A stretch of 64,000 nucleotides of DNA from contig CAXRHT010000002.1 in assembly GCA_964230645.1 (NCBI GenBank), positions 544,001 to 608,000 on the forward strand. The letters are read 5' to 3'. Position numbers and translations under genes: made by a program. The notes beneath the pieces are model-generated. The model did no database searches and was not told the origin of the DNA. It saw only the letters and a list, made by a program, of their open reading frames with translations. Positions within the stretch are counted from its first letter, which is position 1; the number at the start of each line of letters is the position of its first letter. Of the stretch, positions 13,090 to 21,655 are shown one piece after another. Source of the stretch: Bdellovibrionales bacterium. GTDB lineage: Bacteria; Bdellovibrionota; Bdellovibrionia; Bdellovibrionales; JAGQZY01.

Positions 13090-15084
13090 TCAAAACAGCC
13101 AACGCACACCTCCCACAAAGTTTCGGCCTGGTAGTAGCACTCTATCTTTCAAGAGGGAAACATGGTTTCGAGCTTTCACATCAGCAATGTTATTCACTTG
13201 AAAATACAGTTTTAGCAATGATTCTGAAGATAGTTTGAAAGTGTAGTTAAAATCAAAATTCAAAAGATTGTAACTAGATGTCGGCGTCTCTTGGGGAGCG
13301 GTTCGAGTTTGCTCAAAAACATTTCTCCAACTTAGGGAACTGGAAATGGCTTTCCGATCAAACTGCGCACCTAACCCTAGACGAATGGGAGATATCTGCG
13401 GCAAGGGTTCGTCGGTGGCCAGATTTTGACCATAAAGGTAATCCGCTGTGAATCGCAAACTCCAATAGGCATGGAGACGCTGACGCACCTCTAATTCCGC
13501 TCCATTGATTCGCGCTCTTTGCGATTGATAGTTGTATATCTCAAAGTCCTCGGGCGAATCTCCCGCGGTTCCACTCTCATCAGTATCGGCAAAAGTTCCC
13601 GAGGGATTTAAACTCACAAAGTTTGAGAACTCCTGATCAAAAACAGTGAAGCCCACATAAAAGTTTCGGGTCTTTCTTTTTATTGACCATTCTAATGCAA
13701 AGTTTGTTTCTTTTTCTAAGTCACTCTCCCCTACTTCAAAAATACCCAGAGCCAAATGGGGACCGTTGGAGAAGAGCTCTTGATAAGTGGGTGCTCTTTC
13801 ATTGTAAGAAAGATTAAAGCTAGTGGAGGTCTTTTGATTAAAACTATAAACGCCTCCAAGAGCAGCACTAGTAGTTAAAAAATCAGCGCTTTGATCCTGG
13901 GCTTGAGTGGGACCTTGATAGGCTTTTAGGTTAGTGCTCTCACCACGAAGGCCAAAGTTGAACTTAAAAGGTCTTAATTCAATTTCTTCAAAGGCAAAAA
14001 GAGCGATGGCTTCCTTGTCAGTCGTCGGTAAAAAGGCCTCTTCCCCCTGAGCGGAATACTCCAAAACTTGAGTCTGTAGGCCTAGAATTCCATGCCACCC
14101 GTCTTTATTGGCTTGGACTAATTCAACTCTTGATTCGTTACCCGTATTGTCAAAAATCGTTCCCGTCTCGCCACCTTCAAGTTCCGTGTGTTCATAGAAA
14201 GTTTGCGCAGATTTCACCCGAAGACCTGTAAAGAAGCCACTTAAACTTTTATGGCCAGCGAGATCAATACGACGTTGCTTCAGGTTGATATCAACATCAG
14301 TCTCGCTCACTACACCATAAGTATTTTCAAAAGAGGCATAAGAAACGCCCAAATAATTTTGTCGATCAAAAAAATAGGTCGAGCCAGCAGCCATGGCTCT
14401 CTGCTCGGTTTCAGAATTTTGAATTTCACCTTCCGGTGTGGCCGTGTTTCTGGCATTGGTGTACTGACCATCGACGTGAAACATCCAATCACTCACTCCG
14501 TAGTCTAATTTTCCCGAAACACTATTACCCTGGTTAACGGATTCGTATTTATCATCGAGGCCTCCATAGAGTCCTGGGAAATAGGACTTATGAATTCTTG
14601 AGTTGACGATATTAACCACTCCGCCCACAGCCGAGGAGCCGTAAAGGAGACTGATCGGCCCCCTCACAATTTCCACACTTTCTGAAGTCAGGGGATTCAT
14701 GGGAACCGCGTGATCCTCGCTAGTTCCGGAGGCATCCAGAATTCCAATTCCGTTCTGAAGAATACGAATTCTATCACCCTTAAGGCCTCGGATAACAGGT
14801 CTTGATGAGTTGGGACCAAATTGAGTGGAGTTCACTCCAAGCTCTTCTCTGAGGGTTTCACCGAGAGAGTTTTTGGCCTTCTCCATAAGCTCCTCACCAT
14901 GGAGATTGGTCACAGTGGGAATTGTATGGAGAATATCACTTCGCTCCTGGCCTCCCAGAACTTGAATGGGCCCTAGGTGGATAATGGAATCATGATGATG
15001 ATCACCATCCTCAGTGTGCTCCTCTTGAGCGTGAACAGAAAAAACGGACAGAAATACGGCTGAAATTAAAATAAATTGAGTCAT
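13090..15084 (-). CDS. TonB-dependent receptor, ZnuD-like zinc transporter
   Basis: His-rich N-terminus (EEHTEDGDHHHD); plug motifs SRPVIRG, SEDHAV, VEIVRGPISLLYGSSAVGGVVN; ELFSNGPHLA; C-terminal GRNF...WLF; start at MTQFIL. Confidence 0.92.
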   Translation of the reverse strand: MTQFILISAVFLSVFSVHAQEEHTEDGDHHHDSIIHLGPIQVLGGQERSDILHTIPTVTNLHGEELMEKAKNSLGETLREELGVNSTQFGPNSSRPVIRGLKGDRIRILQNGIGILDASGTSEDHAVPMNPLTSESVEIVRGPISLLYGSSAVGGVVNIVNSRIHKSYFPGLYGGLDDKYESVNQGNSVSGKLDYGVSDWMFHVDGQYTNARNTATPEGEIQNSETEQRAMAAGSTYFFDRQNYLGVSYASFENTYGVVSETDVDINLKQRRIDLAGHKSLSGFFTGLRVKSAQTFYEHTELEGGETGTIFDNTGNESRVELVQANKDGWHGILGLQTQVLEYSAQGEEAFLPTTDKEAIALFAFEEIELRPFKFNFGLRGESTNLKAYQGPTQAQDQSADFLTTSAALGGVYSFNQKTSTSFNLSYNERAPTYQELFSNGPHLALGIFEVGESDLEKETNFALEWSIKRKTRNFYVGFTVFDQEFSNFVSLNPSGTFADTDESGTAGDSPEDFEIYNYQSQRARINGAELEVRQRLHAYWSLRFTADYLYGQNLATDEPLPQISPIRLGLGAQFDRKAISSSLSWRNVFEQTRTAPQETPTSSYNLLNFDFNYTFKLSSESLLKLYFQVNNIADVKARNHVSLLKDRVLLPGRNFVGGVRWLF

Positions 15085-15093
15085 AGAGTCTTG

Positions 15094-15110
15094 TTGCAAT
15101 ACTTTTGCAT
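15094..15110. promoter_or_regulatory. Putative Fur/Zur-family operator (box 1)
   Basis: TTGCAA-TACTT-TTGCAT, about 10 nt upstream of the receptor ATG. Confidence 0.7.
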
Positions 15111-15126
15111 TAAGGTCTAGACTTTT

Positions 15127-15143
15127 TTGCAAATATGTTGCAA
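15127..15143. promoter_or_regulatory. Putative Fur/Zur-family operator (box 2)
   Basis: Perfect TTGCAA-ATATG-TTGCAA, 10 nt upstream of the tonB ATG. Confidence 0.75.
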
Positions 15144-15153
15144 TAAGTTATTT

Positions 15154-15753
15154 ATGAAATGGTCACTCCCATTAAGCCTTATATTGCATGGACTTCTGGT
15201 ACTCCCCTTTTTTTGGCCCCAAAGTAAAGAACCCACCTATAGCCAGGTTTCAACCATAGAACTTCTAGGGGCTCCGGCCCACAAACAAAAAAAGAGAGCG
15301 AAAAAAGTGCGGGGCTCAAAAAAGGTGAAAAAGCCAAAAGAAAAGAAAGAACAGGATTTTGCCAAATCCAGTGAAAGCACTCCGAAAGAGGGAAATGCCG
15401 AGGTCGACGCTCCCGAAATCGAAGGGGGGTCTCAGAGCGGAGGAACACGCTTGACCGTCGTAGCCCAGTACGCTCAAGACTTGCAACTCTTTATTGAGAA
15501 AAACAGATACTATCCCAGACGCGCCCTTGTAATGGAACAAACCGGAGTGGTTAAAGTAAAACTCACGATAGATGCTCAAGGCCATTTTACGGAAGTGGAG
15601 GTGGTAGAACCTTCCTCCCACGAGATTTTAAACCGAGCGGCAAAGAATCTAGTGACCGATTTGAGAAAATTTAAACCCCTGCCTTCCGTTTATCGAGGTA
15701 ATGGCACTTTCGTCATTCCTATTAACTACCAACTACAAAACTCAGGAATATAA
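15154..15753 (+). CDS. tonB: Energy transducer TonB
   Basis: TM with SLILHG, Lys-rich linker, YPRRA...GVVKVKLTIDAQG...SSHEILNRAA TonB-C domain. Confidence 0.9.
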   Translation: MKWSLPLSLILHGLLVLPFFWPQSKEPTYSQVSTIELLGAPAHKQKKRAKKVRGSKKVKKPKEKKEQDFAKSSESTPKEGNAEVDAPEIEGGSQSGGTRLTVVAQYAQDLQLFIEKNRYYPRRALVMEQTGVVKVKLTIDAQGHFTEVEVVEPSSHEILNRAAKNLVTDLRKFKPLPSVYRGNGTFVIPINYQLQNSGI

Positions 15754-15755
15754 TA

Positions 15756-16193
15756 ATGAACTTTGAAGAGTTAGAAAATCGATTGAGAGATAAAAAGATG
15801 CGAGTGACCCAGGCTCGAAAAGAAATCTTCTCCTTGTTACAAAAAAGCTCGAAATCTCTCACGCCCAAAGAAATTTTTGAGCAAATCAAAACCAGCAGTG
15901 GCACGGATTTAGCCTCCGTTTATCGTAACCTCACTTTGTTTCAAGAGATGGGGCTGGCTCACCGCTTTCAGGATGGTAGCTTCTCTAATTGCCATCACGA
16001 CCATCACGAACAAGATGGCCATCGACATATCCATTTTATTAGTCATTGCGTGGAATGTGGAAAAAAAGACGAGATTCAAAGTCACTCTAAAAAAGTTTGT
16101 TCGCTAGCTAATGAGATCGGCAAACTGAGCCACACTCTCACAACCCTAAACGAGGTTGTGGTTCAAGGACTTTGTACTAAATGCGATAAATAA
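15756..16193 (+). CDS. zur: Fur-family regulator, probably Zur
   Basis: RVTQARKEI, ASVYRNL, His-rich HHDHHE...HRHIH, CVEC and CTKC; located next to a zinc receptor. Confidence 0.85.
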   Translation: MNFEELENRLRDKKMRVTQARKEIFSLLQKSSKSLTPKEIFEQIKTSSGTDLASVYRNLTLFQEMGLAHRFQDGSFSNCHHDHHEQDGHRHIHFISHCVECGKKDEIQSHSKKVCSLANEIGKLSHTLTTLNEVVVQGLCTKCDK

Positions 16194-19235: not shown

Positions 19236-19332
19236 TCTAATCAACGAAAGAAGACCGGCTCGATCCGACGGCCATCAAGATTCTAATAGAGTTGATCACG
19301 AAGACTAACTTCGAGACACTAAATTTCTTTTT

Positions 19333-19361
19333 TTGACAGTATGATGCGTGAGCAGTAATCT
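19333..19361 (+). promoter_or_regulatory. Sigma70-type promoter, likely giving a leaderless transcript
   Basis: TTGACA-N17-TAATCT, then 6 nt to ATG 19368. Confidence 0.7.
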
Positions 19362-19367
19362 AAAACT

Positions 19368-19694
19368 ATGTTTTTCGATACTCGGAAACCCCTTTTATGG
19401 ATCTTCTTTGCCGCCATTTTGATGGTGAGTTTTGGCCCCACTCTGGCCAAAGTTCTTGAGAAGCGCCCGCTTAAATCAGCGCCTCTATCAAAGCTTGAGA
19501 CTTCCGTAGAGATAGAAAAAGAAAGCAGTGAAAAGGACGACTTTTCAGAATCCTTTGATTGGGACCTAAGCTTTCCAATCGACTCTCTCAAATTTGAGTT
19601 TATAAAAACCACTCTAGGTTTTGAAAATTTAATAATCATCCATAAAAATTCGTATCTTGGTTATTTTTTAAGAGCCCCTCCCTTTATCCAATAG
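19368..19694 (+). CDS. Candidate RAPP-type translation-arrest leader protein of the sbtA operon
   Basis: N-terminal hydrophobic signal/TM, acidic middle, C-terminal YFLRAPPFIQ*; stop region complementary to the sbtA SD. Confidence 0.7.
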   Translation: MFFDTRKPLLWIFFAAILMVSFGPTLAKVLEKRPLKSAPLSKLETSVEIEKESSEKDDFSESFDWDLSFPIDSLKFEFIKTTLGFENLIIIHKNSYLGYFLRAPPFIQ

Positions 19695-19767
19695 TTACCT
19701 AAATTCTTTTTTCTAATTTTTGACTTGAACTGACTGATTCACAGTCTTTGATCTATTGGAGTATTCA

Positions 19768-20748
19768 ATGTTTGAATCTTTACTGGGTAATATCACCCAT
19801 CCACCCATCCTATTTTTCTTTTTAGGAATGGTCGCTGTCCTTTTGAAATCGGACCTAAGCATTCCGCCTGCTATTGGAAAATTTTTCTCCATCTACCTTT
19901 TGTTTGATATCGGCCTGAAAGGAGGAGAGGAACTCTTTCACTCTGGAATCACCACTGAGGTCATAAAAGTGATGGCCATCTGTATGCTGCTCTCTTTTGC
20001 CGTCCCTTGGATGGTCTATAAAATTCTAAGAAAAAAATTAGATATTGAAAATTCGGGAGCGATTGCCGCCACCTATGGCAGCATCAGTGCGGTAACCTTC
20101 GCCACGGCCATTTCATTCTTAAATTCCAAGGGTATTCACTTTGGTGGTTATATGGTGGCAGGTATGGCCCTTATGGAGTCTCCTGCTATTGTCTCTGGCC
20201 TTTTATTAATCGCTATTAACTCAAAACAAGTCAGTGAATCGGGGAAAGGCATCGATTGGAAAAAAGTATTACATGAAGCTTTTTTTAATGGTTCGGTCCT
20301 TTTGCTCGTAGGCTCTCTTGTTATCGGTTATCTCGGCGGCCAACAAGGAGAAGACGAATTAGCTCCTTTCGTGAATGGCATTTTTGCCGGTATGCTCTCC
20401 CTTTATATGTTGGACATGGGACTGACCGCAGGATCTAGATTAGGCTCCTTAAAACAATCGGGCCCCTATTTGGTCGGCTTTGCTCTTATATACCCACTTG
20501 TCGGTGGAATATTAGGTATTGCCTCAGCAGCACTTATAGGACTTGATGCCGGTGACGCACTTCTTCTGACCATACTAGCAGCTAGTGCCTCCTACATCGC
20601 TGTGCCCGCAGCCATGAGAATCTCTGTGCCCAAGGCCAATATGAGCCTACTACTTCCTATGTCCCTTGGAGTCACTTTCACTTTTAATGTGACCATAGGA
20701 ATTCCACTTTTTTACTTTAGCATTGAAAAACTTTGGAGTGTTTTATGA
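19768..20748 (+). CDS. sbtA: SbtA-family sodium-dependent bicarbonate transporter
   Basis: PPILFFFLG, IGLKGG, AATYGSISAVTF, MESPAI, LDMGL, SASYIAVPAAMR, TFTFNVTIGIP; SD GGAG 19758-19761 favours ATG 19768. Confidence 0.93.
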   Translation: MFESLLGNITHPPILFFFLGMVAVLLKSDLSIPPAIGKFFSIYLLFDIGLKGGEELFHSGITTEVIKVMAICMLLSFAVPWMVYKILRKKLDIENSGAIAATYGSISAVTFATAISFLNSKGIHFGGYMVAGMALMESPAIVSGLLLIAINSKQVSESGKGIDWKKVLHEAFFNGSVLLLVGSLVIGYLGGQQGEDELAPFVNGIFAGMLSLYMLDMGLTAGSRLGSLKQSGPYLVGFALIYPLVGGILGIASAALIGLDAGDALLLTILAASASYIAVPAAMRISVPKANMSLLLPMSLGVTFTFNVTIGIPLFYFSIEKLWSVL

Positions 20749-21014
20749 AATACGAATTAAAAATTGTTCACGATCGCCTTATTTCTATTAAACTAGATGA
20801 ATGGACCAAAGAAAACCGCATTGGTGGCTACACCACACTACTCGTGCATCAGTCTTTTGGAGCTCACCATGGGCGTTTCAATCTTGACAATCTGTCAGGT
20901 GAAAAATTCTTGAGTTTGTTGTATTTTGAGGAGAATCAAGAAAATCTAGCAAGAAGAATTAAAGCTGAAATGCAGGCAGAAGACTTCTTTGTGGTCTTAT
21001 CGGAGCTGTTATGA
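20745..21014 (+). CDS. sbtB: Divergent PII-like SbtB protein
   Basis: ATGA-coupled to sbtA; ELKIV...GGYT...FGAHHGR matches the SbtB pattern (KLVIV...KGYTV...GKGSR). Confidence 0.65.
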   Translation: MKYELKIVHDRLISIKLDEWTKENRIGGYTTLLVHQSFGAHHGRFNLDNLSGEKFLSLLYFEENQENLARRIKAEMQAEDFFVVLSELL

Positions 21015-21655
21015 AAAATTACGGACGCCTATTGTTGTTAATCTCTATTCTTTTAACAAGCTCATTGGGTCAAGCCGCCCGATCGAACTCTGGAATGTGG
21101 CTTGGTATTTTTCCTCATTTCAAAATAGCCGATAAGCAAAGAATTTCCCTGCAAGCCGAAGTCCGTAAGATTGGAGAGGAGCCTTTTGCACTGATCCGCC
21201 CCTCATACCACTATAATTTATCCGATTATGTGGTCCTGGGTGCCGGTTATGACCTCTTCACAGTTAGAAACACGGAGCAAAGAGTTTGGCCGGAGGTGGT
21301 CCTTAAAACCGCCTCCCCTGTTCTGAGTCAAAATCTTTCTCTTCGCATAAGGCAGGAGTTTCGCTTTATCAACAAAACGAGTGCCTCAGCCGAGCGACTA
21401 CGGGTCATGCTGCAAACCCATTTTATACTTTCACGCAAACATGGCCTGAGCGCTTTTATCTTCAACGAAGCTTTTTACTCGCAGTCCACCTTCTCAGGTG
21501 GTTCAGGAGACTTTGATCGTAACTGGTTAGGAGCCCGCATGCGCGTTCGAGGCAAAGAGGCCTACTACGAATTTGGTGGATTCTGGGAAAAGGTGAACGA
21601 CGCCACCTACTCGAGTGGCTTTGTTGGCGTGTTGTGGCTTGGTAAAAAGTTTTAA
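21011..21655 (+). CDS. DUF2490-like outer-membrane beta-barrel
   Basis: Signal peptide; GMW, IRP, EQRVW, RQEFRF, RLRV, FNEAF, FDRNWLG motifs; C-terminal F. Confidence 0.78.
   Translation: MKNYGRLLLLISILLTSSLGQAARSNSGMWLGIFPHFKIADKQRISLQAEVRKIGEEPFALIRPSYHYNLSDYVVLGAGYDLFTVRNTEQRVWPEVVLKTASPVLSQNLSLRIRQEFRFINKTSASAERLRVMLQTHFILSRKHGLSAFIFNEAFYSQSTFSGGSGDFDRNWLGARMRVRGKEAYYEFGGFWEKVNDATYSSGFVGVLWLGKKF

Follow-up and report, generated by a model that had tools for sequence, protein, structure and literature searches.

A 64,000-nt stretch of a Bdellovibrionales genome (contig CAXRHT010000002.1, positions 544,001 to 608,000; hereafter the window) contains an open reading frame (ORF) of 108 aa with a RAPP motif close to its C-terminus. 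It precedes, in the same orientation and with a gap of 73 nt between its stop codon and the next ATG, the genes for a homologue of the bicarbonate transporter SbtA, an SbtB-like protein, and a DUF2490 protein (Table 1). The original prediction described the ORF as a leader in which the ribosome would arrest at RAPP and thereby melt a stem hiding the sbtA Shine-Dalgarno (SD) sequence, and every coordinate that it gave (promoter, ORF, RAPP codons, stem arms, SD, ATG, and hairpin) was recovered in the sequence. The locus as a whole is best explained by a RAPP-type arrest leader that stalls during export and whose stall turns the bicarbonate-importer genes on, an explanation to which we give an even chance.

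Table 1. Features of the leader-sbtA region; positions are those of the window.
Feature	Position	Strand	Basis or remark
Predicted sigma70-type promoter, TTGACA-17-TAATCT	19333..19361	+	Sequence; TTGACA 19333-38, TAATCT 19356-61
Leader ORF, 108 aa, candidate RAPP arrest peptide, C-terminus YFLRAPPFIQ	19368..19694	+	ORF and homologue P0002
Residues 1-27, hydrophobic segment with signal-peptidase-like site T-L-A/K; predicted Sec signal or anchor	19368..19448	+	Sequence
Residues 44-66, Glu-rich acidic tract without His or Cys	19497..19565	+	38-60 residues before P-site Pro
RAPP codons (residues 102-105), predicted stall site	19671..19682	+	Sequence; invariant in P0002
5' arm of stop/SD stem, TCCAATAG	19687..19694	+	Folds; inside predicted stalled-ribosome footprint
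Pyrimidine-rich spacer and weak 5-bp GACTG/CAGTC hairpin (19732-46); possible Rho loading or pause site	19695..19746	+	Composition
3' arm of stem, CTATTGGA (19753-60), and sbtA SD GGAG (19758-61)	19753..19761	+	Folds
Competing hairpin, SD and start codon paired with early sbtA codons	19757..19782	+	Constrained folds; fold of 19696-19790
sbtA-family bicarbonate transporter homologue, 326 aa	19768..20748	+	PF05982, E 2e-115
Divergent SbtB / P-II-like protein, 89 aa	20745..21014	+	ATGA overlap with sbtA; profile match
DUF2490 protein, 214 aa	21011..21655	+	ATGA overlap with sbtB-like gene; PF10677, E 7e-22

By its conservation, the 108-aa ORF is a real and constrained gene, because the homologue P0002 keeps LGYFLRAPP at 67% identity over the full 108 aa and because RAPP is avoided in the long ORFs of the genome; both observations uphold the RAPP-tailed ORF of the original prediction. 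P0002 is the sole homologue in the protein collection. M1-W11 and V20-L40 are also invariant between the two proteins, residues 79-96 have diverged, and the substitutions in the hydrophobic N-terminus mostly stay hydrophobic. The best 12-residue hydropathy of the leader is 2.9, and a basic stretch follows the hydrophobic segment. The leader has one His, and neither protein has a Cys, as expected from the "Cys-free" middle described earlier. In the genome's ORFs of at least 250 aa (914,057 aa), RAPP was seen 0 times (4.55 expected), RGPP 0 times (4.89 expected), AAPP 7 times (6.5 expected), and KAPP 2 times (6.82 expected). The leader is the only free-standing small ORF of the genome with a RAPP/RGPP end, and about 0.04 RAPP-ending ones would be expected by chance. 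A related strain is represented by a 208-nt contig (depth 2.6, errors thus being possible) that lies outside the RAPP and stem region. It bears P0002 residues, and its listed differences, worked out by hand, comprise 6 synonymous codons and 4 that change the amino acid. A 106-aa antisense ORF at 19319-19639 was rejected as a shadow, the listed changes of this contig being synonymous in the + frame.

The leader had no Pfam match up to E 1 and belonged to no NCBIfam family. A profile search of 1.84 billion representatives returned P0002 and, in a 474-aa protein, one weak and partial match that was disregarded. Relatives beyond P0002 were therefore collected through the neighbouring genes, sequence searches reaching only P0002. 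Seven related leaders had no DUF2946 match in Pfam, and one of them gave a match at E 0.089 to an unrelated family. The nearest named Atlas clusters were SecM_small, DUF2946/CzcI, and DUF6769 at 0.92, which serves as a lead only.

Synteny indicates that the leader is inherited together with the sbtA cassette, because G004 has the same flanks but neither the leader nor the sbtA genes. The upstream dehydrogenase was searched in five genomes of the same genus and matched in four. G004 (L261) has the flanking genes of the window in synteny, protease and dehydrogenase to one side and the RND gene to the other, and a single unrelated 272-aa gene replaces the whole leader-sbtA-sbtB-DUF2490 unit. The leader had no match at any of the five same-genus loci. 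SbtA was matched in 1 of 12 other genomes of the genus, and distantly (37%). DabA had no match in the genome of the window and was matched in 4 of 6 genus relatives, those four being without an SbtA match.

Similar leaders recur upstream of other sbtA genes, in agreement with the original expectation of a conserved leader with a signal, an acidic middle, and a PP tail. In a quick tree of 94 SbtA proteins (3 partial sequences and 1 duplicate were dropped, 4 known duplicates and the distant L011 were left out, and L092 and L088 were labelled by hand), 7 loci had a leader with an xPP tail, 3 had another acidic leader, 6 were at contig edges, and 78 had none. The xPP leaders fall into two clades: one in which 5 of 7 members have tails RAPP, RGPP, RAPP, IAPP, and TGPP (Shimodaira-Hasegawa-like approximate likelihood ratio test, SH-aLRT, 96), and one in which 2 of 4 members have DLPP tails (SH-aLRT 100). 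They share a hydrophobic N-terminus, an acidic middle, and the xPP tail, and are otherwise unalignable. Judged from this tree, they would represent two origins or one old origin, not seven, and are kin and not independent cases. Of the 36 loci from a scan of the genome collection for SbtA, most of them in cyanobacteria or planctomycetes, none had an xPP leader according to the filter used, and an SbtA search at E 1e-95 in 401 genomes of the phylum of G580 gave two matches, neither with a leader.

The same design was found upstream of a second carbon-uptake system. Upstream regions were compared for 60 of the 97 dabA matches, chosen from the better full-length rows, and 15 had an xPP leader. 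Of 15 complete SulP-dabA operons, 12 have such a leader; the other 3 leaders stand directly before dabA. None of the 17 labelled dabB-dabA operons had one, and 4 of the 17 had a divergent LysR gene, suggesting that the leader replaces a signal-specific regulator. The beta-carbonic anhydrase gene of the genome has no such leader.

Other candidate control elements were observed at related sbtA loci. Acidic exported leaders without a PP tail precede Bacteroidota-type sbtA at L095:535-885, L088:1-285, and L101 (two tandem ORFs 5' of sbtA). They end in (R/K)APKLYLLFxQLKLH or LFLxYCSxK(V/I)HC, a tail of the L(F/Y)L...(L/F)K(L/I/V)H type, and RAPK in the L095 tail looks like a bridge to RAPP. At five sbtA loci without a leader (L005, L071, L076, L083, and L104), the divergent gene is LysR-like by its N-terminal sequence, suggesting that leader and LysR are alternative controls of sbtA. 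At L052, a member of the SbtA clade of the window without a leader, two genes precede sbtA on its strand (L052:545-1389), which look like those for a nickel superoxide dismutase (motif HCDVPCG) and its maturation protease.

The promoter-like element described originally is present: TTGACA, a 17-nt spacer, and TAATCT are followed by only 6 nt before the leader ATG at 19368. Because the promoter abuts the ATG, the mRNA is predicted to be leaderless, a point absent from the earlier account. A relaxed pattern, defined after the window promoter had been seen, required a TTG start, A2 and T6 in the -10 box, 7 or more matches out of 12, and a distance of 5-7 nt to the first in-frame ATG. It fits 5 of 6 sbtA leaders versus 63 of 1686 long genes of the genome; it also fits 1 of the 15 dabA-type leaders, 4 of which have no ATG to test. 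In L051 and L053, the first ATG lies downstream of an earlier TTG start. The related-strain contig keeps the -35 box, has an insertion and a deletion that leave the 17-nt spacer intact, reads TATTCT at -10, and has the 6 nt before the ATG altered in letters at the same length. TATGAT at 19340-45, considered as another -10 box, was rejected, since that contig does not keep it intact. The promoter scan found no internal sbtA promoter in 19695-19767, the place where the original prediction had seen a threat to its reading, and the single scan site that falls within the leader (19621-49) is no more than chance would give (5 found versus 4.5 expected).

Concerning the input, acidic residues are concentrated in one zone before the putative stall. 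At 40-59 residues before the P-site Pro, the 21 carbon leaders (6 sbtA and 15 dabA-type) have 96 Asp/Glu residues versus 56.6 +/- 5.9 in shuffles, which 0 of 10,000 shuffles reach; the peak lies at 45-59, and the 6 sbtA leaders alone have 30 versus 17.5 in shuffles. For the control set, 60 loci with TolC and CusA homologues in the same phylum yielded 31 xPP leaders upstream of these genes (at two loci with two candidates the last was kept, and L206 may be an ordinary protein). These metal-efflux leaders are acidic in the same zone (26-28% Asp/Glu at 50-59), and an acidic patch as a mark of carbon leaders was rejected because it failed on net charge. Acidity alone is thus no indication of the pH or CO2 sensing that was originally suggested for the leader middle. 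The Asp/Glu count is somewhat higher in carbon than in metal leaders (median 5 versus 3, p = 0.01), and His plus Cys has a median of 0 in carbon leaders versus 5 in metal leaders, whose His and Cys sit 35-59 residues before the Pro, where carbon leaders bear the acidic tract. The acid used also differs, Glu predominating in carbon leaders and Asp in metal leaders. These comparisons suggest a common acidic chassis, supplemented by a binding site in metal leaders but not in carbon leaders. As a design rule, the chassis would lie some 50 residues from the stall, and leaders for metals would have His/Cys in addition, leaders for carbon only Glu.

Two further xPP leaders, at L197:233-652 (G000 C1:7132-7551) and L198:278-661 (C2:20177-20560), are found in the genome of the window. 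They are His- or His/Cys-rich, end in FRPP, and precede a CusA-like RND gene and a TolC gene. Their relatives at 31 of 60 loci mostly end in xRPP or xKPP, many of them with a CH(L/F/M)GHC-like motif, and the two tested had no DUF2946 match.

On the output side, footprint and SD region match over 8 bp, which 4 of 500 shuffles equalled (p = 0.008), and the stem has predicted pair probabilities of 0.86-0.98, which fall to 0.32-0.55 once about 30 nt of sbtA are included. Across the 21 leaders, such a match had p < 0.01 in 3. The stall was modelled by forcing a 30-nt footprint open, and the cost of opening the SD was compared with 3, 15, and 30 nt of sbtA; at the window locus it drops by 2.9, 2.4, and 0.3 kcal/mol, respectively. 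The gain is limited by the SD and start codon finding new partners among the early sbtA codons, so SD release here would need to act during mRNA synthesis. In the other five sbtA leaders, the switch is strong in L092 (10-12 kcal/mol), intermediate in L051, and little or none in three, whereas 9 of 15 dabA-type leaders have their SD freed by at least 1.4 kcal/mol. These folds support SD release well for the leader class and moderately for the window locus. Of the stem switch in the original prediction, the stem therefore stands as a predicted, above-chance structure, but the switching is weakened by the competing hairpin, the gain of 0.3-2.9 kcal/mol, and four of the five other sbtA leaders being without a comparable switch. 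The GACTG/CAGTC hairpin is present at 19732-46, though not above chance (it is one of 4 terminator-like sites versus 3.2 expected), and the first 35 nt 3' of the leader stop are 69% pyrimidine.

Taken together, these features point to the following course of events. The ribosome would stall at the leader RAPP, Pro104 (19677-79) occupying the P site and Pro105 the A site, a stall geometry described in PMC10951233. The leader probably stalls at RAPP, and the stall is probably needed for sbtA expression. The stalled ribosome would cover 19687-94 and briefly free the sbtA SD during mRNA synthesis, before the start-codon hairpin forms; whether SD release is the output at the window locus seems to us evenly balanced, with Rho polarity as the main alternative, and both may act. 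Since the leader has no His/Cys metal site, voltage or Glu protonation is left to set the release rate, and the membrane voltage would pull the acidic tract through the Sec channel, releasing the stall. Plentiful bicarbonate would lead to release and an operon that is off, and scarce bicarbonate to a stall and an operon that is on. Bicarbonate is reported to dissipate the pH gradient (PMC9741644) and to cause a compensatory rise in voltage (PMC10433871), both sources citing a 2018 study by Farha. If more bicarbonate means a higher voltage, more pull, release, and shut-off would be the right direction for feedback. In SecM force assays, the pull on a D5 segment depends on voltage and peaks at about 50 residues (10.1101/310698); like the leader, these engineered constructs place an acidic stretch at this distance from the stall site, but they are artificial, and no natural regulator pulled by voltage on an acidic stretch was found in the literature searched. 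Voltage as the release input is thus tentative, with chances somewhat short of even, and its link to bicarbonate is one that we infer. The broader idea, a natural voltage-sensing arrest peptide that serves as a bicarbonate sensor, its Glu-rich, metal-free design being recruited to the unrelated SbtA and SulP-DabA and replacing LysR, is fairly unlikely.

Several observations weigh against the proposed arrest and voltage mechanism. Directly after the hydrophobic segment, the stretch KVLEKRPLK (19449-19475) has a net charge of +3, is invariant in P0002 and better kept than the acidic tract, and is of a type not seen in other leaders. Positive residues flanking a membrane segment affect its topology (the positive-inside rule), and by this rule the stretch could hinder export or invert the topology. 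The acidic tract may belong to leaders of this kind in general: net acidity at 40-59 is the same in carbon and metal leaders (median 3 versus 3, p = 0.92), and the best acidic window is widely spread, at 43-71 residues from the Pro (67 in L092, 62 in L093). The Glu:Asp contrast between carbon and metal leaders (89:23 versus 46:91) was picked post hoc after several features and among related leaders, so that its p-value overstates the difference. Taken as a whole, the stop/SD region is predicted to fold no more stably than its shuffles (z 0.49 to -1.01), and a gain of at least 1.4 kcal/mol occurs in only 2-3 of 6 sbtA leaders, the window locus with 30 nt of sbtA not being among them at 0.3. The standard consensus scan misses the leader promoter, whose -10 box matches at 3 of 6 positions, and the great majority of sbtA loci (78 of 94) manage without such a leader. 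An Arg that cannot be replaced in ApcA, ApdA, and ApdP (PMC12992588) is missing from the IAPP and DLPP tails. Finally, 3 of 5 SbtA2 homologues were functional in E. coli and 2 of 5 were without function (PMC13187645), which bears on what the window SbtA may do.

An explanation that keeps the arrest leader and changes its output is transcriptional, as in CruR: a ribosome loaded at the extreme 5' end of the leaderless mRNA and trailing the polymerase would, when stalled, shield the pyrimidine-rich tract from Rho, and release would lead to termination before sbtA, the stem being secondary. The Rho gene is present in the genome, and the CruR stall, cited in the original prediction as an example of SD melting, in fact blocks Rho-dependent termination (PMC9426467). 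The five promoter-abutting sbtA leaders have weak or window-dependent SD switches, in contrast to the strong one of the SD-led L092, and the first 35 nt after their stops are 51-89% pyrimidine versus 34% in L092, although this correlation comes from six related leaders. Around the stop, C exceeds G by 12, and only 5.6% of the genes of the genome reach 10, but the excess comes largely from the Pro codons themselves, which confounds the test. As the 8-bp stop/SD match at the window locus is above chance, we consider a purely Rho-based output doubtful, while a serious contender.

Other explanations concern the signal. The carboxylates of the tract might bind Na+, Ca2+ or Mg2+, or be protonated in the periplasm or cytoplasm, and voltage would then have no part. 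The tract sits where the same-phylum metal leaders bear His/Cys (35-59 residues before the Pro), the CXXC of CruR is 45 residues from RAPP (PMC9426467), CutF senses a periplasmic ligand in this way (10.1101/2025.02.05.636593), and the possible marine-metagenome origin of the sequence (one study) makes Na+ or Ca2+ plausible. However, the carbon leaders share no fixed residue pattern, the profile search having gone hardly beyond P0002, and the same design heads SulP-dabA operons, whose transporters are unlike SbtA, so ligand sensing appears unlikely. The leader might instead be a generic monitor of export or membrane capacity that times membrane-protein synthesis at the translocon and receives no carbon signal. 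The acidic zone common to metal and carbon leaders is consistent with this, as is the occurrence of RAPP leaders before many unrelated envelope genes (PMC12992588), but two unrelated carbon-uptake systems share the Glu-rich, His/Cys-free version, and the absence of the leader from all 17 dabB-dabA operons, 4 of them with LysR, suggests that it stands in for a signal-specific regulator; a generic monitor is quite unlikely. That the ORF encodes an ordinary small exported accessory protein in which RAPP is incidental would account for the signal-like N-terminus and the well-conserved N-terminal third. The avoidance of RAPP, the retention of the tail while residues 79-96 diverge, and the recurrence of xPP tails in otherwise unalignable leaders make this very improbable.

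By its sequence, the leader belongs with the RAPP/RGPP upstream ORFs of Fujiwara et al. (PMC12992588): like them, it is shorter than 300 aa, has RAPP 3 residues from its end and an N-terminus that may act as a localisation signal, and is followed by a co-oriented envelope gene. The top 30 RAPP downstream classes in that source include no carbon-uptake gene, whereas the target here is sbtA, and its main text and part of its supplements make no mention of bicarbonate, sbtA, or carbonic. In at least 15 rows of its source table the downstream gene is SulP, acidic tracts being present in some of these, so RAPP ORFs before SulP, a transporter family that includes bicarbonate carriers, are already in print as data. 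In agreement with the original claim that arrest-peptide control of inorganic carbon uptake had not been described, no paper on it was found in the literature searched. New points are SbtA as the target, the inheritance of leader and cassette as one unit, the leaderless geometry, and the control set of metal leaders.

CruR of Bordetella (PMC9426467) and CutF of Rhodobacter (10.1101/2025.02.05.636593) are exported, as is predicted for the window leader, and are similar to it in having a C-terminal proline-rich stall motif and, about 45 residues upstream of this motif, a region that in the window leader is a candidate sensor. In both, the stall turns the downstream genes on, via Rho in CruR (PMC9426467) and via an SD stem in CutF (10.1101/2025.02.05.636593). 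In contrast to the DUF2946 family, the window leader has no profile match, no CXXC/CXXXC copper site, no Cys, and a single His. With SecM, ApdA, and ApdP (PMC10951233) it has the RAPP/RAGP core in common, and release by pulling during export is borrowed from them as a model. It differs from them in that the downstream gene is Sbt_1 and not sec or yidC, with no direct feedback on the export machine, and there is no similarity outside the motif. Previously tested RAPP-type leaders monitor protein export or, as CruR and CutF do for copper homeostasis, sense copper, whereas this one fronts a bicarbonate importer. Cyanobacterial sbtA is under LysR-type control. The cyanobacterial sbtA-sbtB systems (7cye, 6wue; SbtA2, PMC13187645) likewise combine the transporter and a P-II-like partner in one operon, but none of the cyanobacterial sbtA loci in the tree has such a leader, and the window operon adds DUF2490. 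The locus points to a control of carbon uptake in non-photosynthetic bacteria without a transcription factor. If voltage is indeed the input, the leader unit of about 450 nt would be a genetically encoded membrane-potential switch.

The assignments of the downstream genes were consistent with the original prediction for sbtA and DUF2490. The sbtA product matches PF05982 (Sbt_1) with 385.7 bits versus a cut-off of 27 (E 2e-115) and the Synechocystis SbtA structure 7cye at E 2e-23, and bicarbonate transport is its predicted function. The assignment of sbtB held in part. The 89-aa ORF (20745-21014) alone had no Pfam or family match, while a profile of nine sequences (this ORF and 8 neighbours of related sbtA genes) met solved SbtB structures first (6wue, E 1.2e-6). 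Six of the nine members match P-II, the window protein not being among them, so the label sbtB-like is reasonable but indirect. The DUF2490 protein (PF10677, E 7e-22) has DUF2490 clusters as Atlas neighbours, one with 26% OMP_b-brl, and is likely an outer-membrane barrel. In L092:581-3985, the gene for a 370-aa secreted protein without a Pfam match separates the leader from sbtA, and sbtB is followed by a gene for a hexapeptide-repeat protein. A similar 366-aa protein is encoded 3' of sbtB at L051:2840-3940, and a gene of this size is also found in SulP-dabA operons. The 370- and 366-aa proteins may be outer-membrane channels alternative to DUF2490.

Elsewhere in the window, at 13090-16193, a minus-strand gene for a TonB-dependent receptor with a His-rich N-terminus is divergent from genes for TonB and a Fur-family regulator with a His-rich insert, which looks like an ordinary zinc-uptake locus.

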